From the NCBI GenBank assembly GCA_040386815.1, contig JAZKET010000034.1:61236-125235 (forward strand): 64,000 nt of DNA. Reading direction: 5' to 3'. The first letter of the stretch is position 1, and every line of letters begins with the position of its first letter. Shown here one piece after another: positions 9,852 to 25,820 of the stretch. Position numbers and translations under genes: made by a program. Below the pieces are notes generated by a model, which was given only the letters and a program-made list of their open reading frames with translations, was not told the DNA's origin and searched no databases. Source of the stretch: Bacteroidota bacterium. GTDB lineage: Bacteria > Bacteroidota > Bacteroidia > Sphingobacteriales > Sphingobacteriaceae.

Positions 9852-11441
9852 TCATCCCACTACAATCTCTTGTTTTACCCAAACCTGTTGTAAAAACCAT
9901 TCATCGTGCGATACCACCAACAGCGTACCCCTATAATCGGCAATGGCGGCAGTTAATATCTCTATGTTTTGCATATCAAGGTTGTTGGTAGGCTCGTCCA
10001 GTATGATCATATCTGGCGCTTGTTGGGCTATGGTAAGGCTGCACAGCATCAGGCGCATCTTTTCGCCGCCGCTTAAGGCATGGCAAGGTTTGTCCCAATC
10101 GTTCTTAGTAAATAAAAAACGATTAAGCCTTATCTTGATATCATGCTCTTGCAGTGCGCCGGTGTTATAGTGCTGCGCCTGTTGGTAAACTGTAAGGCTG
10201 TTATCTACCAGCGAATAATCCTGATCAATGTAGATAGCATTTACAGCCGCCAAATCAATACTACCCTGTTGTGATGGCATTTGCCCAAGAATCATTTTTA
10301 TCAGCGTGGTTTTGCCCGAACCATTTAAGCCCTTTATTGTTATCCTGTCGCCGCTATATATTTCAAAGCTTAAGCCTTCTTTCCAAAGCAAAACATCCCC
10401 ATAAATTACATTTACCGCATTTGCTTTAACCAAAGTTTTTCCTTTGTGCAATGCAGAGGTATCCAAATCAACTTTCATCTTATCCCCATCAGGCAAAGCA
10501 GAACGCAATTGCGAAAGCTGCTGCGATATGGCTTCAATCTTTCCGGTATGTATGCCTTTTATTTTTGAGGTACTGCGTTCGGCACTATTGCGCATAGTAT
10601 TCATCATAATAGCAGGCATGCCGGCTTTCTCCTGTTTCCTTTTGCCGCGCGCATCCAGCTTTTGCTGGCGTTCCACAGTTTCGCGTTCTACATCACGGGC
10701 CTTACGCAAGGCTTTTTCCTTGCTCTTTACATCAGCATTTAGCGCGTCGTGGGCAATAGCTTTTTGTTCGGCATAAAATTCATAATTACCGCCATATGTC
10801 GTTATCCCATTAGGTGCAAGCTCACAAACGGTAGCTAACAGGTTAAGCAAAGCGCGGTCATGACTTACCACCACCAACGTATTATTTGTATCCTTAATAT
10901 AGTTGTACAACATTTGCCGCCCCTGCCTATCCAGATGATTGCTTGGCTCATCCATCAAAACAATATCGGGCTTATGCAAATCAATGCCCGCCAAAAACAC
11001 TTTGGTTTTTTGCCCGCCACTTAGGGTGCCCATGCTTTCGTGAGGCGCCAAATCCATCAGCCCCCATTTGGCCAGGGCTGTTTGGCAACGTTCTTCAATG
11101 GTCCAATCGTCATTTAATGCGGCCATGGTTTCATCGCTTACATCGCCGTTTAAAATTTGGGCAAAGGCCTGTAATTTATCATCAATACCCAATGCCTGCG
11201 CAATAGTAACATGGTTATACTGACCAAAAATTTGTGGCACATAGTACGGCCGGGTATCGGTTTTAACCATGCCCGCAAACGGCACAAGCTCACCGGCCAT
11301 TAACTTTAAAAGCGTTGATTTTCCGGTGCCATTATTGCCTATTAAGGCTACTTTATTGTTTTTGTTGATGATGAGATCCAAACCACGGAAAAGCACATCA
11401 CGATTGGGGTGTATATAGGTAATATCCTGTAATAAAATCAT
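9852..11441 (-). CDS. ABC-F family ATPase (ribosome-associated, possibly ARE-type)
   Basis: Two ABC cassettes (GNNGTGKS, LSGGQ, DEPSNHLD, SHDR; GLNGSGKT, LSGGE, DEPTNNLD, SHDE) joined by a charged helical linker; no TM segments. Confidence 0.92.
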   Translation of the reverse strand: MILLQDITYIHPNRDVLFRGLDLIINKNNKVALIGNNGTGKSTLLKLMAGELVPFAGMVKTDTRPYYVPQIFGQYNHVTIAQALGIDDKLQAFAQILNGDVSDETMAALNDDWTIEERCQTALAKWGLMDLAPHESMGTLSGGQKTKVFLAGIDLHKPDIVLMDEPSNHLDRQGRQMLYNYIKDTNNTLVVVSHDRALLNLLATVCELAPNGITTYGGNYEFYAEQKAIAHDALNADVKSKEKALRKARDVERETVERQQKLDARGKRKQEKAGMPAIMMNTMRNSAERSTSKIKGIHTGKIEAISQQLSQLRSALPDGDKMKVDLDTSALHKGKTLVKANAVNVIYGDVLLWKEGLSFEIYSGDRITIKGLNGSGKTTLIKMILGQMPSQQGSIDLAAVNAIYIDQDYSLVDNSLTVYQQAQHYNTGALQEHDIKIRLNRFLFTKNDWDKPCHALSGGEKMRLMLCSLTIAQQAPDMIILDEPTNNLDMQNIEILTAAIADYRGTLLVVSHDEWFLQQVWVKQEIVVG

Positions 11442-11443
11442 AA

Positions 11444-11567
11444 AATTCCTTTCGGCTAAAAGGGTGAATAATAAGAGCGTTGGGGCCTGGGTGGCGGCTC
11501 ATGTTTATTATTGCCTGAAAGAAATTATTTATTACATGCGTGCGGGTTTGTTTGCGCTGCAAAAATA
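11444..11567 (-). promoter_or_regulatory. ABC-F promoter and attenuator-like leader
   Basis: -7 box TATTTTTG (11567-11560); AUG-UAA mini-ORF (11537-11532); complementary arms 11526-11517 and 11453-11444 next to the start codon. Confidence 0.55.
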
Positions 11568-11644
11568 GAAAAATTTACCGTAAGCAAACCACACAACATT
11601 TTAACTAAGCGCATATTTGGTAACTTGCATGCTGATATAAAGCT

Positions 11645-12250
11645 ATGCGCATAGGCACAAATATTTATAAAATGTTTTTTTTGTGGGGATCTCTGGTCTT
11701 CATAACAACGTCAGCATCGGCACAAAACCGCCTGCAAGAGTTTGACGACCGGATAATGATAGACCTGGCAGAGCATCGCACACCGCAGAAAACCGGGTTC
11801 ATGATGTTCATGTCAGACACTTACCGTTACGGCGATATTGGCATACCTGCGGGCCTGCTTATTGCCGGCGTAGCCACTAACGACCGCAATATGCGCGAGA
11901 ACGCGGGCTATATTGCCAGTAGCACAGCTATATCGTGGGGCCTTACCTTTTTAATAAAACATATTGTAAAACGCCCGCGCCCCTTTGTACAAAATCTAAA
12001 AATTGTCCCGGTTTATAAAGCGGGCAGTACGTCGTTCCCTTCGGGACATACATCAACAACCATCGCCACTGCTACAGCGCTTTCTATGGCCTATCCTAAA
12101 TGGTACGTTATTGCCCCGGCATTTATGTGGGCGGGTACTGTAGGGTATTCGCGTATGTATTTAGGGGTGCATTACCCTACCGATGTTGGCGCGGGTGCTT
12201 TGTTGGGTGCGGGTACTGCGTTGAGTATGTCGTTTATGCGGGTGCGGTAG
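11645..12250 (+). CDS. PAP2 family phosphatase
   Basis: KHIVKRPRP, SFPSGH, SRMYLGVHYPTDV. Confidence 0.93.
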   Translation: MRIGTNIYKMFFLWGSLVFITTSASAQNRLQEFDDRIMIDLAEHRTPQKTGFMMFMSDTYRYGDIGIPAGLLIAGVATNDRNMRENAGYIASSTAISWGLTFLIKHIVKRPRPFVQNLKIVPVYKAGSTSFPSGHTSTTIATATALSMAYPKWYVIAPAFMWAGTVGYSRMYLGVHYPTDVGAGALLGAGTALSMSFMRVR

Positions 12251-12290
12251 GTTTTGTAGTCTGAAAGTCCGAAAGAGACTTGTCGTGTAT

Positions 12291-12384
12291 TTTGTCTGAA
12301 CCTTGATTCGCAGGATTAGAGGATTACAGGATTTGAGTTGCATCACGGCAATCCTCTAATCCTGCGAATCAAGGTTCAGACAAA
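12291..12384. repeat. 35-bp perfect inverted repeat with 24-nt loop
   Basis: TTTGTCTGAACCTTGATTCGCAGGATTAGAGGATT (12291-12325) is the exact reverse complement of 12350-12384. Confidence 0.9.
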
Positions 12385-12493
12385 TCCTATCATCCTTTTA
12401 ATCCTACAGATATTAGTTTGTAATCCAATTGTATAAACACCATCATCAAACCGTCAGTAATTATTAGCACGTATATCGCTTAGTAATTTTTAA

Positions 12494-12501
12494 TAACTTT
12501 G
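12494..12501 (+). promoter_or_regulatory. Bacteroidota -7 promoter element for the GAF gene
   Basis: TAACTTTG matches TAnnTTTG, 18 nt before the ATG. Confidence 0.6.
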
Positions 12502-12519
12502 CATGCTGTTTAAATCCAT

Positions 12520-14883
12520 ATGTTCCCGCAATTCTTCGACAAACCCTTTCGTTTACAACTATCGTTCGATAAAATTATCGAGGGCTTAGAAGATACTGCC
12601 TCAAACGATAGCGGCTGGCGTAGTATGAATGCCCATTCGTTATTAGAGCAGGTTGCCAAACACCCTGAACTACGCGACGGTCTTGTTAATGAAGAGCAGG
12701 TTGCTGTTAACGAAGAACTGATTGCCGAATTACTTGCAGACCTGTTTCCGAAAGCCTTAACGCTAAACGAAATAAAGGCTGTAAGCATTCCTTTTCAAAG
12801 CCTCATTTTTAATCATACCCAACGCTTTAAAAATATTTTGAAAGATGCGGGGTCTGATTTTGAGATCAATATCCGCGATTTTGGCGATCAGCAGTTGTAT
12901 GTAATGAGCTGCTGTATCATCCTTAATGAATTTTATAACACCAGGCTTGATTTTAGCAAGCCCATGTTTTATGATATACCTACGGCTAACGGCGTTATGC
13001 GCCATTACCGCATTTTATATAATGCCGATTTTCTGGAGATTTTAGAGACCGACAATTCGCCTAAGCTAACACAGGCAGATATTGATGAGTTGATGGATAA
13101 CTTTGACGATGTTGAACTGTGGAGGCAAAAAATACCACCGGGCAGCTACCTTATAAAAGGCTTTGGCTTAATGACTTTGGTTGATGTTACTGTTGAGAGC
13201 GCGCTGTCAACCCTTAAAAGTAATTTACTGGCCAACTATTCATCGCCAGAGGTTAAAGAAAGTTTGTTGTCAATTTTTAGGTCGATATATGGTATACCCG
13301 ATATGCGCATGGGCTTTACCTTGTTTGACAAAAACGAAGAGAAGTTTTTAAACGTACGTTTCGGGCCCGATTTTCATAGCTTTTTACTGCCCTACCAAAA
13401 GGCGCACGATACAGAAAAGATCCTGTGCGATAATTCTTTTAATTGCCTGGTGCATGAGCATCATTATTTCGCGGTGTCTGATGTGGCGCGTTATGTTGAG
13501 GAAAACCCTGAAGATAACTTCGGTAAGCATTTCCTTGAACAAGGCATTATGAGTTTCATCCTTGCACCAGTAATTAAGGATGGTGTTTTATTAGGGATAC
13601 TAGAGCTGGTATCGCCACGCATACGCGAGCTGAACAGCGTTACTGCCAACAAGCTGGATATTGTAATGCCGTTTCTGGTAGATACAGTAGACCGCAAGAT
13701 GAATGAAATGCAGAACCGCGTGCGGGCTGTCATTCAAAACTACTACACCACGCTGCACCCCAGCGTTTACTGGAAATTCCGTCGCGAAGCGCAAAATTAT
13801 ATCGAGCATAACAATAACAGTTTGGCTTACACGCTAAAAGAGATCAAATTTAAAGACGTTTATCCGCTTTACGGGCAGGTTGATATCAGCGATTCCTCTC
13901 TCACCCGTAACCTGAGTGTGAGTAATGATCTGGGGAACCACATGGCACGTTTGATCCAATTGTTAAAAGAGATCAATAAGGCCGGCAATAAACCGCACGT
14001 AACGCAAATATTGTTCGACCTTACTACTTTCTCTGACGAGTTAAAGCAGAGCATACGTGCGGATACAGAGCAGTTTATACAGCATTATATTGAGGACAAG
14101 GTGCACCCGGTGCTTACCGCCGCTGCCGTAAACGCTAATTTTAAAATACAGGTAGATAATTACTTTAAACAAGCCGATAGTTTAAAGGGCGATTTCCACG
14201 CTAACCGCCGTAATTACGATAAAACACTGTCGCTGATCAATCAAAAACTGGCTGGTATTCTGGACCATCGCCAGGCCGAGATCCAGGAGTTTTACCCGCA
14301 TTATTATGAACGCTTCAAAACCGATGGGGTTGAGCACAATATGTACATTGGCGAAACTATTGCACCTGATCGGGAATTTACGTTGAAGGATCTGCACCGT
14401 TTACGCTTATGGCAAATGCGGGTAATTGCCGAAATGGAAATTGAGCAGTATGATCTGAAAAGCTTGTTGCCATATTCGTTAGGTGTAACGTCGCTGATAC
14501 TGGTTTTCAGTACGCCGATAGCTATCCGTTTCAGAATGGATGAGAAACATTTTGATGTGGACGGCGCTTACAATATCCGCTACGAAGTAATTAAAAAGCG
14601 GATTGATAAAGCTCATATTAAAGAAAGCACCGAGCGTATTACCAAGCAAGGAAAGATCACCATCATCTACTCAAAAGCCGAAGAAGAAACAGAGTACATG
14701 GGCTATATCAAAATTCTGCAAGACGAAGGCGTACTGGCCGACGATGTAGAACATTTTGAGGTAGAAGAACTACAAGGCGTAGCCGGCCTAAAAGCCTTGC
14801 GGGTTGGCCTTATCCACCATGATCAAAACCTGCTGGCGCACCGTGCCGCAAGCTATGACAAGCTGTACGATAGGATAAGTTAA
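12520..14883 (+). CDS. GAF domain protein with a putative divergent class III nucleotidyl cyclase C-terminal domain
   Basis: GAF-like segment SFILAPVIKDGVLLGILELVS. C-terminal motifs LYGQVDISDSS, RFKTDGV, KHFDVDGAYN, GKITII and ELQGV follow the cyclase order. The cyclase call is inference. Confidence 0.8.
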   Translation: MFPQFFDKPFRLQLSFDKIIEGLEDTASNDSGWRSMNAHSLLEQVAKHPELRDGLVNEEQVAVNEELIAELLADLFPKALTLNEIKAVSIPFQSLIFNHTQRFKNILKDAGSDFEINIRDFGDQQLYVMSCCIILNEFYNTRLDFSKPMFYDIPTANGVMRHYRILYNADFLEILETDNSPKLTQADIDELMDNFDDVELWRQKIPPGSYLIKGFGLMTLVDVTVESALSTLKSNLLANYSSPEVKESLLSIFRSIYGIPDMRMGFTLFDKNEEKFLNVRFGPDFHSFLLPYQKAHDTEKILCDNSFNCLVHEHHYFAVSDVARYVEENPEDNFGKHFLEQGIMSFILAPVIKDGVLLGILELVSPRIRELNSVTANKLDIVMPFLVDTVDRKMNEMQNRVRAVIQNYYTTLHPSVYWKFRREAQNYIEHNNNSLAYTLKEIKFKDVYPLYGQVDISDSSLTRNLSVSNDLGNHMARLIQLLKEINKAGNKPHVTQILFDLTTFSDELKQSIRADTEQFIQHYIEDKVHPVLTAAAVNANFKIQVDNYFKQADSLKGDFHANRRNYDKTLSLINQKLAGILDHRQAEIQEFYPHYYERFKTDGVEHNMYIGETIAPDREFTLKDLHRLRLWQMRVIAEMEIEQYDLKSLLPYSLGVTSLILVFSTPIAIRFRMDEKHFDVDGAYNIRYEVIKKRIDKAHIKESTERITKQGKITIIYSKAEEETEYMGYIKILQDEGVLADDVEHFEVEELQGVAGLKALRVGLIHHDQNLLAHRAASYDKLYDRIS

Positions 14884-14897
14884 ACTCTTTACTTTGT

Positions 14898-14985
14898 TGT
14901 CATTTCGAAACGAGGAACGAGTGAGAAATCTTATCCTCGCGATTTGGCATCCGTATAAGATCTCTCGCTATGCTTCGAAATGACA
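14898..14985. repeat. Palindromic repeat TGTCATTTCGAA...GAGAAATCT...AGATCTCTC...TTCGAAATGACA
   Basis: 12-bp terminal inverted repeat plus inner arms, between convergent genes; may act as a terminator. Confidence 0.75.
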
Positions 14986-14998
14986 TTTTGTTTTAACC

Positions 14999-17536
14999 TC
15001 AAAATCTAAACCCAGCCGTGATATAAGGATACGCGCCCTCTTTTGAGAAACCAACCACACCCTGTATCAATATCAGCTGCGCCGGTAAAAAAAAGACACC
15101 ACCGCCATAACCCATGTGCCAGGTATCAGAGTTTTCGCCCGGCGACCATACACGGCCGACATCATCAAACCCAACCAGCCCAACAGTGCCCGGCAACAGG
15201 TACGACGTAAAATCAAACAGCTTTACTCTTACCTCAAAATTGTTAAAGGCCATGGTTTTTCCGGTGAAGCGCCACTGATAAAAGCCACGTAAATTGTTGT
15301 TACCGCCCAATTTTAATTGCTGATAGTACGACGCGTTACCTACAGTTGTGCCTATACCTGTACGGTTGCCAAACACCAGTTTATAATTATCGCCGGGATC
15401 ATACAGAAAGCTGAAGTCAGACTCTATCTGCCCATAATTATGCGCATCGGGGTTTAGTGATTTCATGGCGCTGAAACTGGTTGTCCATAAAATACCCGAG
15501 TGTTGCACAATGTTCTTATCGCGTGTGTCTAAAGTAAATGCGCCAACTATACCCACATTACCCTGGCCGGCAAACACATTTTCTTTCGGATGAGCAAGGT
15601 CGTAATCTTTCAAAAAACGGGTTTGGTTATCGTCCCTGTCGCCGTTGTAGTATTGGGCAGAGACACCAGCGCTTACCGTCCAGTTGTTATCATAAGTATG
15701 CCGCAAGCGGATATCGGCATTTATCAGGTTATAAACGTTGCGGTAATAACGAATGCGTTTGCCCTCTTCATTTACAAAAACGCTGTTGTTTCCCACACCA
15801 AAAAAGTTGCTTACAAAGTTTGGCCCCCGGTTGGTTATGTTTACTATCAGGTCGTTCTTTTTTACAGCTTGCTTAAACTCGCCCTCGTAATTTAACCACA
15901 ATGAGCTTACGCCAAGGCCATAGTTTGCCGTAAAACTTTGCCTAAACGCATACGGATCTTTCTTAAAACCCTGCTTTTGCCATACCAGTTTGGTGATAAG
16001 CTGTAAGCCGTAGTCTTTATTATAACTACCTAAAAACAGTGGCTGCAAAAAGTCATACTTAAAATTCTTGTTCAAGTATTTATTCACCATCGTATCCGTT
16101 GACAAACGGCGGCGGGCGAAACCGCTTTCAGGCAGGTTGTTCTTCTCATCGCTCCGGTCATAAATGTACCGGTTGCCGCGGCCGGTGATATTGCTGTCAA
16201 CCATAAAGTTGTCCTTATCATCGCCACCCACCATCCTGATCTTTATAGGCGAACTGTTTTTGCCATGCACCGCAAAATAATCTTCATTACCCTGCCCGTA
16301 CAGGCGCACTTCTTCGGTAACTTTAGGGTCGAAAGTGCGCTCGTAAATAACATTGTCGCGCTGGCCCTCTTTGTTTATTTTGGTGATGGTTACCTTAACA
16401 CTGCCATCCTGCTGGTTGGTGATGTCAAAATATTCGTGCTTATCTGTGCCCGGAATATCTACTTTATTTGATATAAAGCGGTAATACCTCATTGCTTGCC
16501 GCTTAAGCACATTACGGCGTGCAATCATTTTGCTGACGATCTCCTGTCCGCTTATTTTATAAATATTAGGCGGCATTAATTTTATCGCCCTGGTAATCAC
16601 CTCATCGGTAAGCTTGGTTTGTACAATATTGATCTGCTCTTCCCAATCTTTTTCATTCAGGCCATTTAAAAAGAAACGGTCGAAATTACGCGCGTTCAAA
16701 TTCCAGCGTCTTACAGAGCGGATATGATCTTCATAACTCTGAAATTTCGACATCAGCAAATGCCTTGACACCAGCCAGGGCATAACGCCTGATGTGCTGT
16801 AATACACCTGGTCCCTATCCCTTGGTATAGGCTCATAAACACTGCCTTTATCGGTTTTTATCTTCTCCCAGCGCCATTGATCCTCGTGGCGGTCCCAGTC
16901 GCCCAGCAGCATATCCAGCAGGCGGGCACGCAGCACCGTTTTCTGATTTACGCTGTTATCGTTATCCTCTTTTAATTTTTCGAAGGCTTTGTCGGTGTTA
17001 TCTGTTTTCTTCGCGTCAAGCGGCTCTCGTTCTTCAAACAAAAACACCTGGTTGGCAAAGTCTTTTCTAAACTCGCCCAGGGCAGGGTCATCGGGTACGA
17101 AAACAATCTCGGGATTAGCGTGCGGCACGTTCAACGCTTTTGCCAGCGGCGGTACGGTAACAGCAGCAAAAGGGTGTTCGGTAACTATCTGATCATCCAA
17201 AATAGAGGCCGCGATGGTTTTTCTCAGCGTTGGTGGCAACACGCGTTCAGGGTATTTCTGGATAGAACGCAGCACCCACTCCTGCCCGGTTTTATCTTCC
17301 AGACGTACAGATTTGGTTTGCATACCGCCGCCACGCTCTGTAGCTTTCAGTCCTCCTTTTTCTTTTGTGATACGAAACACGCGCATTTTAACCGGCGCCG
17401 CCCAAAGCTTGCGGTAACTTTCGCCACTATCATACCTGGGTTCAATAGCCACGGTAATGCTGTCGCCTTTTATCTGCGCAAACGTTTTTGCAGATATGGC
17501 CAAGAGGAAAATCAAAAGCAGGTAACGTTTTCCCAT
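14999..17536 (-). CDS. Omp85 (BamA/TamA-like) outer-membrane protein with an N-terminal atypical-kinase-like domain
   Basis: Signal peptide; GGGMQT, GDWDRHEDQ and PRDRDQ kinase-like motifs; GxGxDxF beta-repeats; barrel with LGGNNNLRGF lid-loop motif and terminal GFRF. Confidence 0.82.
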   Translation of the reverse strand: MGKRYLLLIFLLAISAKTFAQIKGDSITVAIEPRYDSGESYRKLWAAPVKMRVFRITKEKGGLKATERGGGMQTKSVRLEDKTGQEWVLRSIQKYPERVLPPTLRKTIAASILDDQIVTEHPFAAVTVPPLAKALNVPHANPEIVFVPDDPALGEFRKDFANQVFLFEEREPLDAKKTDNTDKAFEKLKEDNDNSVNQKTVLRARLLDMLLGDWDRHEDQWRWEKIKTDKGSVYEPIPRDRDQVYYSTSGVMPWLVSRHLLMSKFQSYEDHIRSVRRWNLNARNFDRFFLNGLNEKDWEEQINIVQTKLTDEVITRAIKLMPPNIYKISGQEIVSKMIARRNVLKRQAMRYYRFISNKVDIPGTDKHEYFDITNQQDGSVKVTITKINKEGQRDNVIYERTFDPKVTEEVRLYGQGNEDYFAVHGKNSSPIKIRMVGGDDKDNFMVDSNITGRGNRYIYDRSDEKNNLPESGFARRRLSTDTMVNKYLNKNFKYDFLQPLFLGSYNKDYGLQLITKLVWQKQGFKKDPYAFRQSFTANYGLGVSSLWLNYEGEFKQAVKKNDLIVNITNRGPNFVSNFFGVGNNSVFVNEEGKRIRYYRNVYNLINADIRLRHTYDNNWTVSAGVSAQYYNGDRDDNQTRFLKDYDLAHPKENVFAGQGNVGIVGAFTLDTRDKNIVQHSGILWTTSFSAMKSLNPDAHNYGQIESDFSFLYDPGDNYKLVFGNRTGIGTTVGNASYYQQLKLGGNNNLRGFYQWRFTGKTMAFNNFEVRVKLFDFTSYLLPGTVGLVGFDDVGRVWSPGENSDTWHMGYGGGVFFLPAQLILIQGVVGFSKEGAYPYITAGFRF

Positions 17537-17541
17537 AGGGG

Positions 17542-18405
17542 CTATTTTTTAAAAGTAAATTTCAACACGTTACCGGGCGTTATCTCATCCCCCTCGTTGC
17601 TGATGTATAAATTATGCTGATTATCAAAAGCCAAACCTTCCGGCTGTAAAAACAGCGCCGGATTAAGCGAATAGACCCCTTTTACTTTAAACGCGGCATC
17701 GGCTATCACCAATAATTTATTGATAGATGCTACAATGAACCACTCACCCGTACCTGGATTTTTTGCAAATGCCGAGGGGCGAAACGCGAATTTCTTTTTG
17801 TTTACCTGTGCTTCAATAGGCTTAGTGTCTATACTAAAGCCACCGGCTGGCGTAACCACGCCGTTAGCTGCCAGTTTAAACTTGTAGCCGGCCGTAGTTC
17901 GGACTTTATCGCCGCCACAATCTTTACACAATATATAAAGCAGGCCGGCTTTTTCATCGCCATACATGCTCTCATACTCGCCTTTGGGTAACAGGTCTTT
18001 TACCTCAACCACATTTGCTGCTGCTTCAGACCATACCTGGTTAAACGGAAAAATATATAGTGTGCCGTTACTCTTAAGCACTACAATCTGGTTGCCCAGT
18101 ATGGTAATATCTTCGTAATCGCCGCTTTTAGCAAAACGGCTGTATTTAGGCGTTTCTTTGCTGCCGGGTTTAAAGTAAAACACTTTCCCTTCTTCATCCT
18201 GTTCGGCAAACAGCATATCCGGCTTGCCATTATGAAATGTAATGCCCGATATCTCGGCCAACGCGTCAGACATATTGTCCTTTACCGGACTATTCAGATC
18301 ATACCCCGGCGGAGTAGGATAGGTCTTTTTTTCAAAACAAGCTATACCAGTTAACATGGCTAATACGATACAAATTATGGCTATAAATCCTTTTAAACCT
18401 TTCAT
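17542..18405 (-). CDS. SdiA-regulated/YjiK-like beta-propeller lipoprotein
   Basis: GIAC lipobox; EISGIT, AEQDEEG, DYEDIT, QPEGLAFD. Confidence 0.8.
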   Translation of the reverse strand: MKGLKGFIAIICIVLAMLTGIACFEKKTYPTPPGYDLNSPVKDNMSDALAEISGITFHNGKPDMLFAEQDEEGKVFYFKPGSKETPKYSRFAKSGDYEDITILGNQIVVLKSNGTLYIFPFNQVWSEAAANVVEVKDLLPKGEYESMYGDEKAGLLYILCKDCGGDKVRTTAGYKFKLAANGVVTPAGGFSIDTKPIEAQVNKKKFAFRPSAFAKNPGTGEWFIVASINKLLVIADAAFKVKGVYSLNPALFLQPEGLAFDNQHNLYISNEGDEITPGNVLKFTFKK

Positions 18406-20420
18406 GCTTTACTTTTCAAATATTGATAAACCCAGCGTTGCGATTGTACAGCAGGCTCAGTTACTTCAACAGGTACATTTTCTATTTTTTCATTAAGCCA
18501 TACGGCTTGTACGTTATCCGTTAGCTGAATGTTAATGATATCCATCACCTCCTGCTTAATCTCCTTATCATACACCGGGAAACACACCTCAACCCTACGA
18601 TATACATTGCGGTTCATCCAGTCTGCCGAACCCATAAAAACCTCGGGCTGCCCGTTATTCTCAAAAACAAACACGCGGCCATGCTCCAGGTATCTATCAA
18701 CAATCCGTTTAATGGTAATGTTTTCGCTCATCGCTTTTGCGCCCGGTATCAGGCGGCAAATGCTGCGCACAATCAACGACACCTTAACCCCTGCATTTGA
18801 TGCATCGTACAGTTTACTGATAAGCTTGCTTTCCTCCAGGTTGTTTAATTTTATGGTGATGGCCGCAGGCAAACCTTTTTGGGCATTGACAATCTCGCGG
18901 TCTATCAGCTCAAAAAAGCGTTGCTGTAAACCAAACTGCGCTACCAGCAAATGCTCAAATTTTATCAGATCTGCCGATTTTGGCTTTTCGCGTTTACGCA
19001 GAAAAATAAACAGCAACTCCACCTCGCGCAGTATGGCCTTGTTGGCTGTCATCAATATATGGTCGGTGTAAAACTCGGCCGTATTCTCATTAAAGTTGCC
19101 GGTTGATAGCAGGCCATAATATTTTATCCGGTCATTCACCCGGCGCTTTACCAGCGCTACCTTGGCATGTACCTTTAGTGCGGTTACGCTATAAATAATC
19201 TCGGCGCCGGCGGCTTTAAGGCGGTTGGCCCATTTAATGTTGTTAGCCTCGTCAAAACGAGCTTTCAACTCTATCAGCACTGTAACCTTTTTACCTGCGG
19301 ATGCGGCGTTTACCAACGCGTTAACAATCCTTGAATCTTTTGCTACGCGATACAGGGTGATATAGATCTCTTCTACCGCCTCATCCAAAGCGGCCGCGTT
19401 AAAGAAACGCAGAATGGTATCGTACGATTGATAAGGCGTATTTATCAGCAGATCTTTGCGTTCTATCTGATCAAAAATGGCTTCGTCGGCGCTTAATCGT
19501 TTATATATCGTCGGCCATTTATCGTACTTCAAATTTGCCTGACTTAGCGGGAAAGCAAACAGATCTTTCAGGTTATGATAATTGCCGCCCTCCACCAGGC
19601 TCGATGGCTCTATCGACCAGCTTTCGCAAACCATCTGCAAAATATTTTCGGGGATACCGGGCTGGTGCAAAAAGCGGGTGGCTATACCCAGATCGCGCTT
19701 TTGCAATTGTTCTTCCACCTGCTCGGCCAGGTCGCCGGGATACTCGTCTTTCAGGTCAAGTTCCGCGTCGCGGGTTATCTTGAAGGCGTAGCAGCCGGTA
19801 ACGGCCTCATCTCTAAATAGCTTATCCAAATTATAACGGATAATATCATCTAAAAACAAGATGTAGGTTTTGTCGCCCTCGTCAACCTTATAAAACCTTG
19901 GCAAATCCGGGGGGATATTTAGCACCAGTACTTTCTCTTCGTCCCCGCCCAGGGTAATTAAAAAATACAGCTCGTTATTTTGGGGGAAGAATTTCTTTTT
20001 GGGCGATAGTTTAAAGGGGCGCAAAAAGGCCATCACCTGGCTAAAAAAATAATCGTTCAGCTGGTCTACCAATTTGGCCGGAGGCGGCTGATTAATTAAC
20101 AGGTGAATGTTACTCTCCTTCAACTGCGCTATCACTTTGGTTATGCCTTTACCAAAATCATGCTGTTGCTGCATAATCAGTTTTTGCGCTACCGAAAGCG
20201 GATCATCAACCACACTGGTGGTAGTGGTTAGTTTGCCCAGCTTATCCATAGCCTGCAGCACGGGCATACGCACCCGGTAAAATTCATCCAGGTTCGACGA
20301 GAATATCGCCATAAAATTTACGCGCTCCAGCAGCGGCACATCACTTTGCAAAGCCGTTTGCAAAATGCGCCCGTTAAAGGTGAGCCAGCTAAGGTCGCGG
20401 TCAAAAAAAGCGTAAGCCAT
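18402..20420 (-). CDS. ppk1: Polyphosphate kinase 1
   Basis: DRDLSWLTFNGRIL, SSNLDEFYRVR, TLYRV, IELKARFDEANN, LKVHAK, TGNFN, DRYLEHGR, SADWMNRN. Confidence 0.97.
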   Translation of the reverse strand: MAYAFFDRDLSWLTFNGRILQTALQSDVPLLERVNFMAIFSSNLDEFYRVRMPVLQAMDKLGKLTTTTSVVDDPLSVAQKLIMQQQHDFGKGITKVIAQLKESNIHLLINQPPPAKLVDQLNDYFFSQVMAFLRPFKLSPKKKFFPQNNELYFLITLGGDEEKVLVLNIPPDLPRFYKVDEGDKTYILFLDDIIRYNLDKLFRDEAVTGCYAFKITRDAELDLKDEYPGDLAEQVEEQLQKRDLGIATRFLHQPGIPENILQMVCESWSIEPSSLVEGGNYHNLKDLFAFPLSQANLKYDKWPTIYKRLSADEAIFDQIERKDLLINTPYQSYDTILRFFNAAALDEAVEEIYITLYRVAKDSRIVNALVNAASAGKKVTVLIELKARFDEANNIKWANRLKAAGAEIIYSVTALKVHAKVALVKRRVNDRIKYYGLLSTGNFNENTAEFYTDHILMTANKAILREVELLFIFLRKREKPKSADLIKFEHLLVAQFGLQQRFFELIDREIVNAQKGLPAAITIKLNNLEESKLISKLYDASNAGVKVSLIVRSICRLIPGAKAMSENITIKRIVDRYLEHGRVFVFENNGQPEVFMGSADWMNRNVYRRVEVCFPVYDKEIKQEVMDIINIQLTDNVQAVWLNEKIENVPVEVTEPAVQSQRWVYQYLKSKA

Positions 20421-20421
20421 G

Positions 20422-21696
20422 TTAGTTAGCTAAAGGCGCGTCGTTATGCAGCGTTGAGGCTATAATATATGCCGCCACAGCAATGATCAACCCAAACATA
20501 AATATGTTATAAGCTACTCTTAAAAAGCGATACTTCCGGCCCAACACCACGCCCTGGCTGTATACGTCCTTTATCAGCGTGCCGTATAAAAAGCCTCGGT
20601 CATCCATCACTTTAAGCATGCCGGCGGTATACTCTTCCAACCCCATTTTATAAAAATTACCAAAGAATAGCAGGTTAACCTTTTTATCGTCAATATCCTG
20701 CGTAGTAAAAGTCCCTTCGGGGATAGCCGGGCGGGTAGCCAGTATCGAAAATATCATAGACAGCAAACTCACCGTCAGCAATATAAAACTCGGTATAGCC
20801 AGGAATGCGTTTTCCTCTAGCTTACGCAACACCAAACTGATAATGGCCGACAGGATAATAGAGTTAACCGTAATTAAAATATGAGCCTTATTATCGGCCA
20901 TATCGCTCAAGCGCTGGTTATTGCCCGATGTTATTCTGAACATGGTTTCAATGCCTTTGTCCGGCTTGTTTTTTTTCTCTTCTTTCTTTTTATCTTTTTT
21001 CTCGTCGGCAATAACTACTACCGGCACAGCTTGCACGGCAGCCTCGGTCTTGCTTTCTGCTTTGGTTTCCTTTGCAGCCTCTGGCTTATCTTCGGCAATG
21101 GTTTCCTGTTGTTTTTTCATTAGTTTGTCCAGGTTTTTTTTCTGCTGATCATGCAGTAACAACTGTGCGTAATCTGTAAAATAGGTATGTGTCTGTAGCA
21201 GCTCAATATTCTTCTGGCGCCAATGGTCCTTATCAATATCCAGGTGTTTTATAATATTAAACTCCTTGCGCAGCAGCTTGCTTTTGTCGGCAAAGTCATC
21301 GGTACCTAAATGGAACAGATCAGCATCGCACATAATTTGCTGCAGCTTACCGGTAGGTTTTTGAGGGATACGGGTGGCAAGAATACAATCATGCACTTTG
21401 GCAATTACCGCTTCATCAACCTTAAGGTGTTGTAAATGCGACACGGCCAGTTCGGCACCGGCAGCTTCGTGGTCGGCTTTGTCAATCAGGTAGCCAATAT
21501 CATGAAACCATGCGGCGGTTACCACCACAAAAAAATCTTCGTTGTTAAGCTGGTAATGGTTGGCAATTTGCGTGGCGGCGTCAACAACGCCTTTGGTATG
21601 TTCCAGATCATGGTACAGCAAATCGGCATCATGATGGCCGTCAAAATACCTTAAAACGTATTGCTTAACATCGCTTAATAATTGCTGATAATTCAT
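20422..21696 (-). CDS. HD-domain phosphohydrolase fused to a Pycsar-effector-like (PycTM/DUF5706) membrane domain
   Basis: HD motifs YHDLEHT, AWFHDIGY and DADLFHLG; charged linker; MADNKAHILITVN, NLLFFGNF and KYRFLRVAY with three TM helices. ATG 21696 is preferred over GTG 21720. Confidence 0.88.
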   Translation of the reverse strand: MNYQQLLSDVKQYVLRYFDGHHDADLLYHDLEHTKGVVDAATQIANHYQLNNEDFFVVVTAAWFHDIGYLIDKADHEAAGAELAVSHLQHLKVDEAVIAKVHDCILATRIPQKPTGKLQQIMCDADLFHLGTDDFADKSKLLRKEFNIIKHLDIDKDHWRQKNIELLQTHTYFTDYAQLLLHDQQKKNLDKLMKKQQETIAEDKPEAAKETKAESKTEAAVQAVPVVVIADEKKDKKKEEKKNKPDKGIETMFRITSGNNQRLSDMADNKAHILITVNSIILSAIISLVLRKLEENAFLAIPSFILLTVSLLSMIFSILATRPAIPEGTFTTQDIDDKKVNLLFFGNFYKMGLEEYTAGMLKVMDDRGFLYGTLIKDVYSQGVVLGRKYRFLRVAYNIFMFGLIIAVAAYIIASTLHNDAPLAN

Positions 21697-21721
21697 AGAA
21701 AAGGTGTTGGTGTTGCTCACC

Positions 21722-21729
21722 CAAATTTA
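21722..21729 (-). promoter_or_regulatory. -7 element TAAATTTG for the HD-PycTM/ppk1 operon
   Basis: Matches TAnnTTTG and implies a transcription start downstream of the GTG, supporting ATG 21696. No clear -33 box. Confidence 0.5.
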
Positions 21730-21841
21730 ATGTTTATATCTGTATTTTGTTTGGTGGATGGGTGTTTTTGTGGGATGAACGTTTAAACATATTTTAAAGA
21801 CGGTTTAAACCAAGCGATGTTACCTAACATATATTTCAGCA

Positions 21842-22019
21842 AGGCTGACCCAGAGGGTCAAAACCTTTGTAGCAAAAAAAGACAAAGCTGTTATGACCCG
21901 GAGGGTCTACCCTTAACGTAAGCATTGATCCCTGTAAAACCTGCACAACGGTAGCCCCGCTGGGGCAAAAAAGAAACTGTAAATTTTTCTACAAAGGTTT
22001 TGACCCTCCGGGTCAGCCT
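21842..22019. repeat. REP/REPIN-like element A (about 36-bp terminal inverted repeats)
   Basis: AGGCTGACCCAGAGGGTCAAAACCTTTGTAGCAAAA versus the reverse complement of TTTTTCTACAAAGGTTTTGACCCTCCGGGTCAGCCT (2 mismatches); internal TGACCCGGAGGGTC copy; GTAG motifs. Confidence 0.85.
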
Positions 22020-22043
22020 ATTATTGCGGTCCGGTATTATAAT

Positions 22044-22265
22044 AGGCGTGTTCGAAACATTTTAAAAGCGACTTTTAAAAGGCGTAGCCTCGACAAATAT
22101 TGTAGCCGCGGTTTTCAACCCGTGGTATACATCATCCATCGAAAGCGAGTGCCATCGGCACGGCCCGCATTATATGGATCGTGCCGATGGCACTCGTTTC
22201 TTGTGTTTGATTTTTTCGCCGGGTTGAAACCCGGCGCTACAATATGAGTCGAGCCGCTGGCTCTT
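22044..22265. repeat. REP-like element B, copy 1 (222 bp)
   Basis: Nested hairpins including GAGTGCCATCGGCACG...CGTGCCGATGGCACTC; near-identical to 22570-22791. Confidence 0.9.
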
Positions 22266-22273
22266 TATTTACG

Positions 22274-22541
22274 GCGGTCCTCGATTACAAATTCAGACCA
22301 CCTTCAGCCACTCTGCTGCTACCAAGCTGCTCCAGAGGAGCAAAATGTCGGTAGAAAAATCCTCTTAAATCTATATTTCGCGCCGTTAGGTGCGAAACTT
22401 AGGCGACCAACGAAACCCCTGATCATAGCGGATAAGTTATGTACCTACGGCACATATAAATTACTTTATATTATTTGCTACCGACATTAAACCCCTACGG
22501 GGTTATCTTCAAATGGCTAAGGGTGTTGATGTTATCGCTTC
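22274..22541. repeat. REP-like element C, copy 1
   Basis: AATGTCGGTAG...CTACCGACATT arms and CCCCTACGGGG; near-identical to 22887-23152. Confidence 0.9.
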
Positions 22542-22569
22542 GTTTTTATGTTAGTCGGGATTTATAATC

Positions 22570-22791
22570 AGGCGTGTCCGAAACATTTTAAAAGCGACTT
22601 TTTAAGAGGCGTAGCTTCGACAAATATTGTAGCCACGGGTTTTAACCCGTGGTATTTGTAATCTATAGAAGATGGAGTGCCATCGGCACGGCCCATTTAA
22701 ATGGATCGTGCCGATGGCACTCTGTTTTGTGTTTAATTTTTTCGCCGGGTTAAAACCCGGCGCTATAATATGTGTCGAGCCGCTGGCTCTT
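22570..22791. repeat. REP-like element B, copy 2
   Basis: Direct repeat of 22044-22265 with scattered substitutions. Confidence 0.9.
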
Positions 22792-22886
22792 ATTTTCAAT
22801 TTGCAAGGTTTCGAACACTCCTGATTTGCAATCCGTGTATCCCAAAGAATAAAATCACGGCCCGGGATTACAAATTCCCACTTACC

Positions 22887-23152
22887 GCGGTCCGCGATTA
22901 CAAATCCGAACCAACTTCATGACTCTGCTGCTACCAAGCTGCTCCAGCGGAGCAAAATGTCGGTAGAAAAATCTCCCACATCTATATCCCGCGCCGTTAG
23001 GTGCGAAACTTAGGCGACTAACGAAACCCTTGATCATAGCGGATAAGTTATGTACCTACGGCACATATAAATTGCTGATATTATTTGCTACCGACATTAA
23101 ACCCCTACGGGGTTACCTTCAAGATGGGTAAGAATGTTAATGTTATTGCTTC
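22887..23152. repeat. REP-like element C, copy 2 (end overlaps the CHAT stop codon)
   Basis: Direct repeat of 22274-22541. Confidence 0.88.
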
Positions 23153-25766
23153 ATTTGTCTACGGATAACAAGCCATCCCCCCAAACCGAACACAATCGCC
23201 GCAATAGCAATTTGCAAAGGCACCCACGAATTTGCCGCCGGCAAATTCACCACCTCATCTGCCCCGGTTAACACCAGCGTATCCCAATAATATGGCAGGT
23301 ACAATGCATCGGCAGACTGCGCATGGTTTAGCCAGTTCAGCTTGGCATTGTGCAGGGCGGCAGCTGTGCTTTGGCTCTTCGTTAAACCCGCGTACATATC
23401 CGCCGTAATGCGCGCCACCGCATCGTCATTAACATTCCATAACCCCGATACCGTGGCCGCGGTACCTATAGCTATAAAACCACGCGACAGGCTGATAATA
23501 CCCTCGCCTTGTGCCAATGTGCCGTCGCCGGTGCGGCAGGCGCTTAGCACTACCAGGTTAGGCTTACGGGAACGCGCCAGCAGTTCAAACAAAAACAGTT
23601 TTTCTTTACCAAAATCAAGCGTAGGTTCATGGTTGGGGCCAGATAGGTAGGCGTGCGTGCTGATGTGCAGGGCAGCCGAATTTTCAAACGACTTAAAAAA
23701 CGAAACAGTATTTACGTCGTCATCATACAAATAATTGCCTTCAACCAATTTCTCAATAGCGGCCGACTCCTGTTTTACGGCCATAATGGGTTTATCGTCG
23801 GCACTGTTATGCGTCATAAACAAACCGCTAAAACTGCCATTGTATTTAATGAGAAAGCGTAACTCACAGTTAACTGCCTGATAAGGTAGGGCCATAGCGA
23901 CGGGGCGGGTTGAAACTTGCTATCGGTTATCAAGCCATCAAAAGACAAATAACCCAAAACATCATCAGGCACAATGCACAGTTTTTCATTTTTCTTTAGG
24001 GCGATATTTGCAAACAGCGTTTTATAAATAGCGTTCGACTGTTGAAAAAACACCTTAGGCGCGTTCACCATTCCAGCCGGACCATTACGATAAAAGGTAT
24101 CTACAAAACCGGTTACCTGCTTGCGGAATTGTTTTGCCCCATCTATGCGGTTAATTGCCCACGCCGACCGGTTTTTAACTTCAATAACATACAAAGCTTC
24201 CGCCCCGAAAAAGAACTCCAATACATGCGCATCAACAGGCAATTTCTTCAATATTTCATCTGCCGATGCTACCGAACCAACGGCCGTTTCACGATATTTT
24301 TTATTGAGCAGGGCCAAATCAAACTTCAAGGCATCTATCTTTTTTTGATATTCGGCCGGGTTGTTTTCCGTCATCATCAAACGCTCATTATAGCTAATGG
24401 CGCGTTCCATATCCAGCTTGCGACGCAGGGCTGCGTCGTTCTTGCCAGCCGCCAGGTTGTGGTAGGTTTTCTGTAGGTCATCTGCCAGCGTACGCGCCTT
24501 GGTTTGTTCGCTCACCGCTAATATCAGGTTTAGATATTTTGGCTGTTTGGTTTGCGCGTAAAGGTTGTAGGCTATTTCAATGGTTTCTTCGGCCAGTTCT
24601 TTTCCCTCTTTTTGCAGGCGTTCCTTGGTTTTATTGTCGGCAAATTCCTTGCGCATTTTATCAGTAGCCAACAGCGCATAGCGCATGTTTTCAAGCGCCA
24701 AAGCAGGCTGCTTTAGCGCCATGTAGGTAAGCGCCTTTTCATGGAAGATGTCAACCAGCTTATTCTCGCCATAAATTTTGTTTGCCGGGGTGATGTTCTG
24801 CACTGTGTTAATGCGCATAATCTGCAACGCGCTGTTTAAACAATTTAGCGCGTTTTGCCATTGCCCCTGTAAACGACATATCTTACCCAGTTGTGTAGTC
24901 AGATAGGCTTTTTCGCGCTGCCTGCCGTCAGCATAATATTTGTTAAGCAATTGCAGCGCTGTTTTAAACTCAGCTTGCGACTTATTTAGCTGGTTGGACT
25001 GCAAATAAATATTACCCAACGTAGTGTGGCTGCCCGTTAAACCATAAGCAGTTTCGCTGTCTATATTTTTTCGTGTAGCGATGTTTTTAATAAGCAGGGC
25101 TTCGGCTTGCTTTAACTCATTTTTTTGGAGCAGTATATCGGCCAGGGTATTATTCAGATTAAACCGTACTTGTGGGTCTTGCACCAGTGCCAGTCCTTTA
25201 GCTACACTTTCCCCGGCGTCATCATATCGCTCAATATTGTAGTATGATATGGCCACGTTGCTGTACAGGGCGGCTACCTTATCGGCCTCGGCAGTTTTGT
25301 TAAGCGCCGCAATGGTGTTTTGCTGTATAAAAATAGCCCGCTCATAATCGCCAAGGCGGGCGTAGTTATTGCCCAGCGGCTTTACTATGTATTCGGCAAA
25401 ATCAAACGCCGCCACGTTATGCTTTTTATAAAACGAATAAGCATCCTCATAACTGTTGATAGATTGCAAAATGTCGCCGGCCTGTAGTTGGTTATAGCCC
25501 TGGGTGGTTAGCAAGGTAAGCCAGGCTATTTGTTCATCGGCAGTCTTGGGTTGTCGCCAGGCTTGTTTGCGGGTGTCTGTTAAAAACGATTGCTGATTGG
25601 GATTAGCATTTGCGTAATCAATGTTGGCGTACAGCCATTCGGTTAAATTGTCCTGTTTTTTTAGCCCATTTAATATAGATTTTTTCGGATTTTTCTGGGC
25701 AAAACTCTGCAAACTGCAAAAGAACAGGCAAAAAAAAAGGCTGATTTTCCTAGGATTGATGAGCAT
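23143..25766 (-). pseudogene. TPR-CHAT (caspase-like) protease split by a frameshift near 23840
   Basis: ORF 25784/25766-23814 has a signal peptide, TPRs and the start of CHAT (IVPDDVLGYLSFDGL). ORF 23895-23143 has the rest, with catalytic LHISTHA and VVLSAC, SLW-like SGLWNV, PYYW and a C-terminal TM helix. The two frames overlap by 82 bp. Confidence 0.8.
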
Positions 25767-25820
25767 TGGCAGGATGTACGGCAATGCTAAAATAGGGAAT
25801 TTTCGCCAGTAAACGCGGGG

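Follow-up and report, generated by a model that had tools for sequence, protein, structure and literature searches.

Pycsar and Pucsar systems pair a class III-type cyclase (PycC or PucC), which makes a cyclic nucleotide monophosphate (cNMP), with a three-transmembrane (3TM) effector of the 'pJV1-spdB3' type (PycTM or PucTM) (PMC11224242; bioRxiv 10.64898/2026.08.12.744502). The PycTM relatives are cNMP-activated, and they have been described as phage-defence effectors only (PMC11224242; bioRxiv 10.64898/2026.08.12.744502). Here we analyse a locus at positions 12520-21720 of a 64,000-nucleotide stretch of DNA (the window) from a Bacteroidota bacterium (GenBank assembly GCA_040386815.1, contig JAZKET010000034.1, positions 61,236 to 125,235), in which the gene for a 787-residue protein, P787, faces a four-gene operon beginning with HD-PycTM, a fusion of an HD domain to a PycTM module. 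We propose, with a probability of roughly 0.6, that the locus is a core-genome nucleotide second-messenger circuit made of Pycsar-like parts, with a phosphate or polyphosphate output at the cell envelope. Comparative genomics and structure prediction support this interpretation, through what we observed of the order of the genes, their domains and domain fusions, the similarity of folds, the conservation of residues and the co-occurrence of the parts.

The open reading frame (ORF) listing reproduced exactly the coordinates given in a preliminary description of this DNA, and the putative cyclase gene converges on the operon in the order claimed there:

12520-14883, plus strand: P787, 787 amino acids (aa)
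14999-17536, minus strand: Omp85-like protein, 845 aa
17542-18405, minus strand: propeller lipoprotein, 287 aa
18402-20420, minus strand: polyphosphate kinase PPK1 (here PPK1-b), 672 aa
20422-21720, minus strand: HD-PycTM, 432 aa

Read along the minus strand, 1 nt lies between HD-PycTM and PPK1-b, PPK1-b overlaps the propeller lipoprotein gene by 4 nt, and 5 nt lie between the latter and the gene for the Omp85-like protein; the four genes thus form a translationally coupled operon. The stop codon of P787 lies 115 nt from that of the operon.

Predicted fold and conserved residues of P787

Relatives of P787 carry only the annotation 'GAF domain-containing'. The GAF signal in P787 itself is faint (E 0.03; weak GAF and GAF_2 matches at residues 330-372 in Pfam), an orthologue matches GAF_2 with an E-value of 1.9e-4, and the P787 profile matches the GAF protein 3rfb in a profile search of the PDB. 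On the basis of the structural models, P787 is predicted to be a cytoplasmic sensor in which a phytochrome-like N-terminal module and a GAF domain are joined by a long signalling helix to a cryptic cyclase-homology domain. Its parts lie as follows:

13240-13629, plus strand: GAF domain, residues ~241-370
13843-14817, plus strand: cryptic class III cyclase-homology domain, residues ~442-766
13894-14286, plus strand: helical-bundle insert of ~130 aa after beta1, residues 459-589

The full-length AlphaFold2 (AF2) model, built on a 46-sequence alignment, has a mean pLDDT of 79.7. Its top PDB match in Foldseek is 6fht (842 columns, E 3e-6), a phytochrome-cyclase chimera in which a phytochrome PAS-GAF-PHY module is joined to a class III cyclase, and the next matches are phytochrome sensory modules (PAS-GAF). 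We also modelled residues 405-787 from an alignment of the last 383 residues of P787 homologues from 54 loci (pLDDT 87.4, pTM 0.83). Class III nucleotidyl cyclases make up 46 of the top 47 PDB matches of this model, including Cya2 (2w01, E 7.7e-5), CyaB, CyaC (1wc1, TMt 0.56) and soluble guanylyl and adenylyl cyclases; the one exception, at rank 47, is a DNA polymerase. The probabilities of the cyclase matches are mostly 0.9-1.0. Two of them, 8jsf and 8jsz, are Pycsar cyclases, which match the fold only weakly and come in at ranks 38 and 46, and no GGDEF domain occurs among the 50 matches listed for these residues.

Conservation was assessed over 110 non-identical P787 homologues, reaching down to ~27% identity, with a threshold of at least 97%. 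The residues that pass fall into three groups: D455, S459 and R463 at the end of beta1; T601-D602-G603 in the beta2-beta3 hairpin; and F678-D679, G682, N685, R687, E689 and K692-K693-R694, which run from a strand into the start of the helix after beta5. Class III cyclases carry two metal-binding aspartates and transition-state Asn and Arg residues at the end of beta1, in the beta2-beta3 hairpin and in the helix that follows beta5. D455, D602 and N685 match these three places by predicted secondary structure rather than by residue-level superposition, and the spacing of 83 from D602 to N685 equals what we take to be the canonical value in mammalian adenylyl cyclase numbering. The conserved residues of P787 would thus coincide with the catalytic places of class III cyclases.

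When the cyclase-domain profile was run against 1.8 billion representative sequences, it retrieved 1,303 clusters, nearly all of ~790 aa. Among the 150 matches listed there were same-architecture members only, with no bridge to canonical cyclases. At 50% identity, the P787-type family falls into over 1,300 clusters.

HD-PycTM and its HD subfamily

As the preliminary description had it, the first gene of the operon fuses an HD domain to a three-transmembrane PycTM module. HD-PycTM matches PF18967 (PycTM) over model positions 1-107 of 107 (E 8.6e-35), PF01966 (HD) above the cut-off (E 5e-6) and the PycTM models of PADLOC (E 1e-16). It has hydrophobic segments at residues 278-301, 304-333 and 398-426, and a charged linker lies between its two parts:

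21301-21648, minus strand: HD domain, residues ~25-140
20443-20904, minus strand: 3TM PycTM / pJV1-spdB3-type module, residues ~273-426

The HD metal ligands (H37, H41, H73-D74, H84-E85 and D132/D134) are kept in at least 95% of 121 HD-PycTM homologues and align with those of the HD hydrolase 2pq7; by this motif set, the HD domain appears to be catalytically intact.

The HD subfamily, defined by an E-value of at most 1e-15 to residues 1-215 of HD-PycTM, occurs in 189 of 301 sampled Bacteroidia genomes. We took a census of 40 members without a PycTM module, chosen by hand at approximately even intervals along the ranking. A class III cyclase (PF00211) is fused to the HD domain in 14 of the 40, in the architectures REC-cyclase-HD, cyclase-HD, HD-cyclase and Reg_prop/Y_Y_Y-cyclase-HD, and a cyclase gene lies within 5 kb in a further 4, so that 18 of 40 (45%) are fused or adjacent to a cyclase. 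One more member is an HD-cNMP_binding-SpoIIE protein of 673 aa. By association, these paralogues lend support to the reading of the HD domain as a putative eraser of the signal that had been made from the sequence of the locus.

Five other census members, of 888-1,148 aa and all from one Bacteroidia genus in another family, are fusions of HD to PPK1, with an HD domain of the same subfamily as that of HD-PycTM. In Mucilaginibacter, a REC-cyclase gene converges on an HD gene that precedes, or is fused to, a YitT/DUF2179 membrane protein. The loci concerned (L numbers denote loci, followed by positions) are:

L198:4995-7685, L203:2877-5624, L214:4983-7673, L217:2916-5582, L222:2913-6359: HD-PPK1 fusions
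L184:3859-5328, L212:1813-3273, L190:2218-3688: HD and YitT_membrane/DUF2179, fused or consecutive

The REC-class III cyclase (~345 aa) beside HD-YitT is convergent in three Mucilaginibacter loci and co-directional in two loci of other genera. Judged by its domains, this arrangement has the same layout of cyclase and HD-membrane protein as P787 and HD-PycTM, with a canonical cyclase in place of P787. Tied in these ways to both cNMP synthesis and PPK1, the HD subfamily would fit a cNMP phosphodiesterase or a 'trigger' sensor domain.

As an observation of its own, the HD-cNMP_binding-SpoIIE protein (L204:4980-7001; HD, PF00027 and a SpoIIE PP2C phosphatase) puts eraser, reader and output domains in one chain.

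Gene linkage and domain fusions

Across 301 evenly sampled Bacteroidia genomes, 38 have HD-PycTM and 24 have P787. Of the 24 genomes with P787, 23 also have HD-PycTM, and in 19 of these 23 the two genes are less than 15 kb apart. The co-occurrence, which involves at least seven families, gives a Fisher p of 2e-23 uncorrected for phylogeny, a value that overstates the linkage because relatives are not independent. Among the conditions under which the preliminary description would give way was a co-occurrence of the two genes no greater than chance; they do co-occur beyond it, at 23/24 against 38/301 overall. The identities of P787 and HD-PycTM correlate in a mirror-tree comparison (r 0.64), which is weak evidence because kinship and the existence of two P787 paralogue types confound it.

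The neighbourhoods agree. We fetched 20 loci around HD-PycTM, 18 of them from Mucilaginibacter, and in most of these 18 the succession HD-PycTM, PPK1, propeller is retained; the Omp85-type protein (two paralogue types), P787 (two types) and a PAP2 gene are nearby, in varying order and often co-directional. Around P787, 80 loci contain HD-PycTM in 71 cases and an Omp85-type gene in 72. In marine Flavobacteriaceae, P787 converges directly on HD-PycTM, a gene for a Metallophos-X-Omp85 protein diverges from HD-PycTM, and there is no ppk1.

The strongest evidence that the parts act together is that the HD domain moves between the P787-like protein and PycTM while the members of the gene set remain together. 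A 968-aa representative consists of P787 with a C-terminal HD domain that is 32% identical to the HD domain in the window over 200 residues (E 8e-30), and the next-best relatives of this HD domain are those fused to canonical PF00211 cyclases. Flavobacterium, Chryseobacterium and Kaistella together have ~90 clusters of such P787-HD fusions, 962-981 aa long. The fusion is the first gene of one co-directional operon in Flavobacterium pectinovorum and Chryseobacterium sp. FH1, where the order is P787-HD, stand-alone PycTM, Metallophos-X-Omp85 (~1,221 aa) and PPK1; a 288-aa gene precedes PPK1 in Chryseobacterium only. The stand-alone PycTM proteins, of 205-208 aa, are ~50% identical to the PycTM part of the window protein.

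Small cNMP_binding (PF00027) genes are also found near these operons, within 8 kb on either side in Flavobacterium pectinovorum (L235:590-1171 and 18373-18907) and upstream in Chryseobacterium sp. FH1 (L236:2591-3172). Their products may be additional readers of the proposed signal, or their proximity may be coincidental.

The linkage bears on one alternative, that the genes share regulation only, for example in a phosphate-stress regulon, with no direct signal between P787 and HD-PycTM. Differences in orientation and order between lineages would suit such an arrangement, as would the position of P787 in the window, on the opposite strand and three genes from HD-PycTM. Common regulation does not, however, call for an HD domain that is physically fused to PycTM or to P787, depending on the lineage, nor for a P787/HD-PycTM pair that is still adjacent in Flavobacteriaceae after all other partners have moved, nor for a layout of cyclase and HD-membrane protein that recurs with a canonical cyclase. 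We consider shared regulation alone very improbable.

The same distribution bears on a second alternative, a non-canonical Pycsar-like abortive infection system in which P787 senses phage and a cNMP opens the PycTM pore, so that the cell is killed or arrested. Here the parts themselves are suggestive: the PycTM module matches both Pfam and PADLOC defence models, its partner P787 has a cyclase fold, and a cyclase with a 3TM effector is the Pycsar/Pucsar design. Against this, 19 of 24 other Mucilaginibacter genomes encode an HD-PycTM orthologue of full length, syntenic with ppk1-b and envelope genes, and the patchy, island-like distribution typical of defence genes is not seen. The module extends over at least seven families, and its identity falls with taxonomic distance while synteny with metabolic and envelope genes is kept. 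P787 has no PycC match in PADLOC, the fused and intact HD domain would erase the signal, and the operon partners are metabolic and envelope enzymes rather than defence genes. Because it is present in most species of the genus and in several families, with conserved synteny, identities that track taxonomy, an intact eraser and no PADLOC match for P787, the evidence argues for housekeeping signalling rather than a phage-defence island. The preliminary description had left physiology and defence side by side; the distribution favours physiology-type signalling, and a defence function seems improbable to us.

PPK1-b and the envelope proteins

The window PPK1 is a full member of its family (TIGR03705 E 1e-202; score 674.9 bits, cut-off 465.85) and contains each of the four Pfam PPK domains. 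The genome holds a second, better-scoring ppk1 on another contig (G000 contig C113:20479-22482; L194:6456-8504, minus strand), directly followed by a Ppx/GppA gene (L194:5560-6453) and with a divergent DUF520 gene on its other side; together with the Ppx/GppA gene it makes up the canonical ppk-ppx pair. The two PPK1 proteins are only 41% identical. PPK1-b, at 56-88% identity to the window copy, was found in 19 of 19 Mucilaginibacter genomes with HD-PycTM (in one as a contig-end fragment), and no such copy was found in the 5 genus genomes that lack HD-PycTM, including one of just 58% completeness. A PPK1 copy of 38-41% identity is present in all genus genomes sampled. Because the canonical pair lies elsewhere and PPK1-b co-occurs with HD-PycTM, the window ppk1 is a module-specific paralogue. 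The polyphosphate link suggested from the locus thus gains from PPK1-b, a dedicated paralogue whose presence in the genus matches that of HD-PycTM without exception, and from the HD-PPK1 fusions in another family.

The 845-aa protein at the end of the operon has a signal peptide, a large domain that we call X and a C-terminal Omp85-like barrel:

15767-17464, minus strand: X domain, residues ~25-590
15002-15760, minus strand: Omp85-like barrel, residues ~593-845

The barrel matches NCBIfam Omp85_fam at residues 593-845 (E 2.3e-23; 83 bits, below the cut-off of 200), and paralogues reach 40-45 bits with PF01103, whose cut-off is 24. The protein gave no match to POTRA or patatin domains. At the N-terminus of most relatives there is an additional calcineurin-like metallophosphoesterase domain (Metallophos, PF00149). 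An alignment of relatives shows three invariant motifs in the X domain, GGGxQ..S.R, GDWDRHxDQW and PxPRDRDQ. There is no Pfam match to the domain in any of 36 members and no PDB match by single sequence or by a 36-sequence profile, and X (in the window, in L018:7712-11389 and in relatives) appears to be an undescribed exported domain family. The protein had been labelled a kinase, and Pfam and PDB searches found no recognisable kinase domain. Since X has no Pfam or PDB relative, we regard that label as a guess from the order of motifs (a G-rich loop GGGxQ...R, DRHxDQ and RDRDQ).

The N-terminus of the 287-aa protein ends in a lipobox-like ...LTGIAC. Its PF06977 (SdiA-regulated) score of 19.8 bits lies just below the cut-off of 21, whereas an orthologue (L018:6256-7146) scores 28.3 bits, with a weak Phytase-like match. 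We regard the window protein, placed among SdiA propellers in the preliminary description, as a probable SdiA-regulated or phytase-like beta-propeller lipoprotein.

A further phospho-enzyme adjoins P787 in part of the family:

11645-12250, plus strand: PAP2-family membrane phosphatase, 201 aa (PF01569 E 6.6e-23)

Its gene is directly 5' of P787 in the window and in most Mucilaginibacter. Among the 80 P787-centred loci it adjoins P787 in 25, all from Mucilaginibacter or close relatives, and by this distribution PAP2 is an accessory of the cluster specific to that lineage.

Points against a cyclic-nucleotide signal

Several observations weigh against the proposed circuit. (i) P787 is assigned to no family by Pfam or NCBIfam, does not match PF00211 even at E 10, has no match in PADLOC at E 0.1 and hence no PycC, and finds no cyclase in the PDB by phmmer or by two profile searches. 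(ii) With hhalign, the P787 domain, with or without the helical insert, aligns to a 30-sequence alignment of canonical cyclase domains from related genomes with a probability below 1%. (iii) The Foldseek E-values are modest, 7.7e-5 to 1e-2, and the TM-scores are 0.4-0.56. (iv) The mapping of catalytic residues rests on secondary-structure register and spacing, and (v) position N+4 of P787 is Glu (E689), so that the canonical Arg is absent. (vi) In the Pucsar preprint, cGMP could not be placed in PucTM (bioRxiv 10.64898/2026.08.12.744502), and no cNMP-binding site is defined in PycTM modules. (vii) HD-PycTM is accompanied most constantly by the Omp85-type protein rather than by P787: in 35 HD-PycTM loci outside the genus, an Omp85-type gene occurs in 27, P787 in 16 and PPK1 in 9. 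(viii) HD-PycTM stands without any partner in one whole family and P787 is absent from 15 of the 38 sampled HD-PycTM genomes, where other cyclases, or none at all, may take its place; HD-PycTM can therefore do without P787.

The only local alignment to cyclases that hhalign returned was discarded, because its register conflicts with a predicted helix. Because the mapping depends on register and N+4 is Glu, we report the fold as a result of structure prediction and only infer the catalysis. The label 'GAF-cyclase' in the preliminary description is accordingly borne out for the fold, with cyclases at 46 of the top 47 structural matches, and lacks a counterpart at the sequence level, where no cyclase and only the faint GAF match are seen.

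Many of these points would be accommodated by a phosphate or polyphosphate envelope pathway that involves no cyclic-nucleotide signal. In such a pathway the P787 domain would be a pseudo-enzyme or another nucleotidyl- or phospho-transferase; the HD domain would act on polyphosphate, nucleoside polyphosphates or another phosphoester; and PycTM would be a channel or an anchor for PPK1-b, with periplasmic and outer-membrane phosphoesterases processing the product. Besides the missing sequence similarity of P787 to cyclases and the Glu at the place of the canonical Arg, the composition of the locus fits, as the accessory genes all encode phospho-enzymes (PAP2, Metallophos, the phytase-like propeller and PPK1), HD-PPK1 fusions exist, and HD-PycTM occurs with Omp85 and PPK1 but without P787 in several families. 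This pathway has to contend, however, with structural neighbours of P787 that are almost exclusively class III cyclases and with invariant acidic and Asn residues at the expected catalytic spots. It has likewise to contend with HD paralogues of which 45% in the sample accompany canonical cyclases and one includes a fused cNMP-binding domain, and with PycTM relatives that are cNMP-activated (PMC11224242; bioRxiv 10.64898/2026.08.12.744502). We judge it rather unlikely, and prefer the second-messenger circuit.

Proposed circuit

In the second-messenger circuit, the writer would be dimeric P787, whose phytochrome-like module and GAF domain would control the divergent cyclase-homology domain through the signalling helix. 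This domain would make a cyclic mononucleotide, the base of which we leave unspecified. The 3TM PycTM module of HD-PycTM, a homologue of the pore-forming Pycsar/Pucsar effectors, would be the reader at the inner membrane and would be gated by the ligand. The fused HD domain would be the eraser, hydrolysing or sensing the signal, and the response would therefore be transient rather than lethal. The output would be phosphate or polyphosphate handling at the envelope, with HD-PycTM translationally coupled to the dedicated PPK1 paralogue. The co-inherited output partners would be the exported propeller lipoprotein and the Omp85-type protein with its phosphoesterase and unassigned domains; the step that crosses the membrane, or takes place at it, is a conjectural part of this scheme.

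A more specific form of the circuit is a trans-envelope polyphosphate or phosphate machine, in which PPK1-b would feed polyphosphate, or the phosphate it yields, into a hexameric HD-PycTM channel gated by the cNMP from P787 and reset by the HD domain, and in which PAP2, the propeller and Metallophos-X-Omp85 would process or anchor the product on the periplasmic side or on the cell surface. We offer this version as speculation and think it unlikely. If it were true, the machine would be a bacterial counterpart of the synthesis-coupled translocation principle of eukaryotic VTC, and the Pycsar-type 'suicide pore' would descend from, or have been domesticated into, a regulated housekeeping channel.

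The circuit itself would matter in several ways. PycTM-type 3TM proteins, known only as cNMP-triggered abortive-infection effectors, would here belong to a conserved housekeeping set with its own signal-degrading domain, and a housekeeping PycTM would make clear the relationship between a physiological channel and an effector of defence. The P787 family would be a new, sequence-invisible branch of the class III cyclases that enlarges the cNMP repertoire of Bacteroidota, and the widespread HD subfamily (189/301 genomes) would be the phylum's missing cNMP phosphodiesterase or sensor. The repeated linkage of HD and of the module to PPK1 would provide a handle on the long-standing question of how bacterial polyphosphate synthesis is controlled.

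Flanking sequences

Scans for promoters and terminators gave no signal above shuffled background, Rfam returned only spurious miRNA-like hairpin matches over 11000-24000, and a tRNA was looked for upstream of the HD-PycTM operon and none was found. The 1.4 kb 5' of the operon (21721-23142) are free of ORFs and consist of two tandem copies of ~526-612 bp, 85-98% identical and dense in GC-rich hairpins; the array looks like repeats of the REP/MITE type. Past it, at 23143-25784 on the minus strand, is a CHAT protease gene, apparently split from a TPR gene. On the other side of the locus, an ABC-F ATPase gene lies upstream of PAP2 (9852-11441, minus strand).

Comparison with known systems

Our literature search found nothing on HD-PycTM, DUF5706 fusions, the P787-type GAF protein or the HD-PPK link. 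We compared the module with systems that share its parts. Like Pycsar and Pucsar, it pairs an enzyme of cyclase fold with a 3TM protein of the same Pfam family (full-length PF18967, PADLOC PycTM), and in Flavobacteriaceae P787 and HD-PycTM are direct neighbours. Unlike the cyclases of those systems, P787 escapes the PycC and PF00211 models and carries large sensor domains; moreover, either the effector or the cyclase carries a fused HD hydrolase, and the module is common to several families, syntenic and embedded among ppk1 and envelope phospho-enzymes, with no indication of a role in phage defence.

P787 shares with the sensor cyclases Cya2 of Synechocystis (2w01), CyaB of P. aeruginosa (3r5g), CyaC of Spirulina (1wc1) and the chimera 6fht the succession of PAS-like and GAF domains, signalling helix and C-terminal cyclase fold, and, as far as the predicted secondary structure places them, the conserved acidic residues at the end of beta1 and in the beta2-beta3 hairpin. 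It differs from them in lacking detectable sequence similarity, in the ~130-aa helical insert after beta1, in a hairpin that reads K-T-D-G where theirs reads K-T-I-G-D, and in having no Arg at Asn+4.

The Bacteroidia PF00211-PF01966 fusions, annotated by some sources as 'class 3 adenylate cyclase/predicted metal-dependent HD superfamily phosphohydrolase', contain the same HD subfamily, at 31-35% identity to the window HD domain, and carry it C-terminal to the cyclase exactly as in the P787-HD fusions; we found no literature study of them. In contrast to the P787 module, they have a canonical cyclase and no PycTM, Omp85 or PPK1 partner in the loci examined. Pairings of writer and eraser are well known from cyclic di-GMP signalling, as GGDEF-EAL and GGDEF-HD-GYP proteins and as 'trigger' phosphodiesterases. 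There, too, a degrading or sensing phosphodiesterase domain is joined to a synthase or an output module, but the folds and the proposed messenger are different.

Type Vd and PlpD-like Omp85 proteins combine an enzyme passenger with an Omp85 barrel, and a phosphoesterase passenger is not mentioned in the Omp85 survey (PMC4104836). The 845-aa protein resembles them in having an exported N-terminal region of enzyme type (Metallophos in most relatives) ahead of a C-terminal Omp85-type barrel, and differs in that no POTRA or patatin domain accompanies it and that its large X domain has no known relative. Taken together, these comparisons of sequences and models support a design that is a variant of the cyclase-plus-3TM arrangement, with a putative cyclase family invisible at the sequence level and a housekeeping context of polyphosphate and envelope functions.

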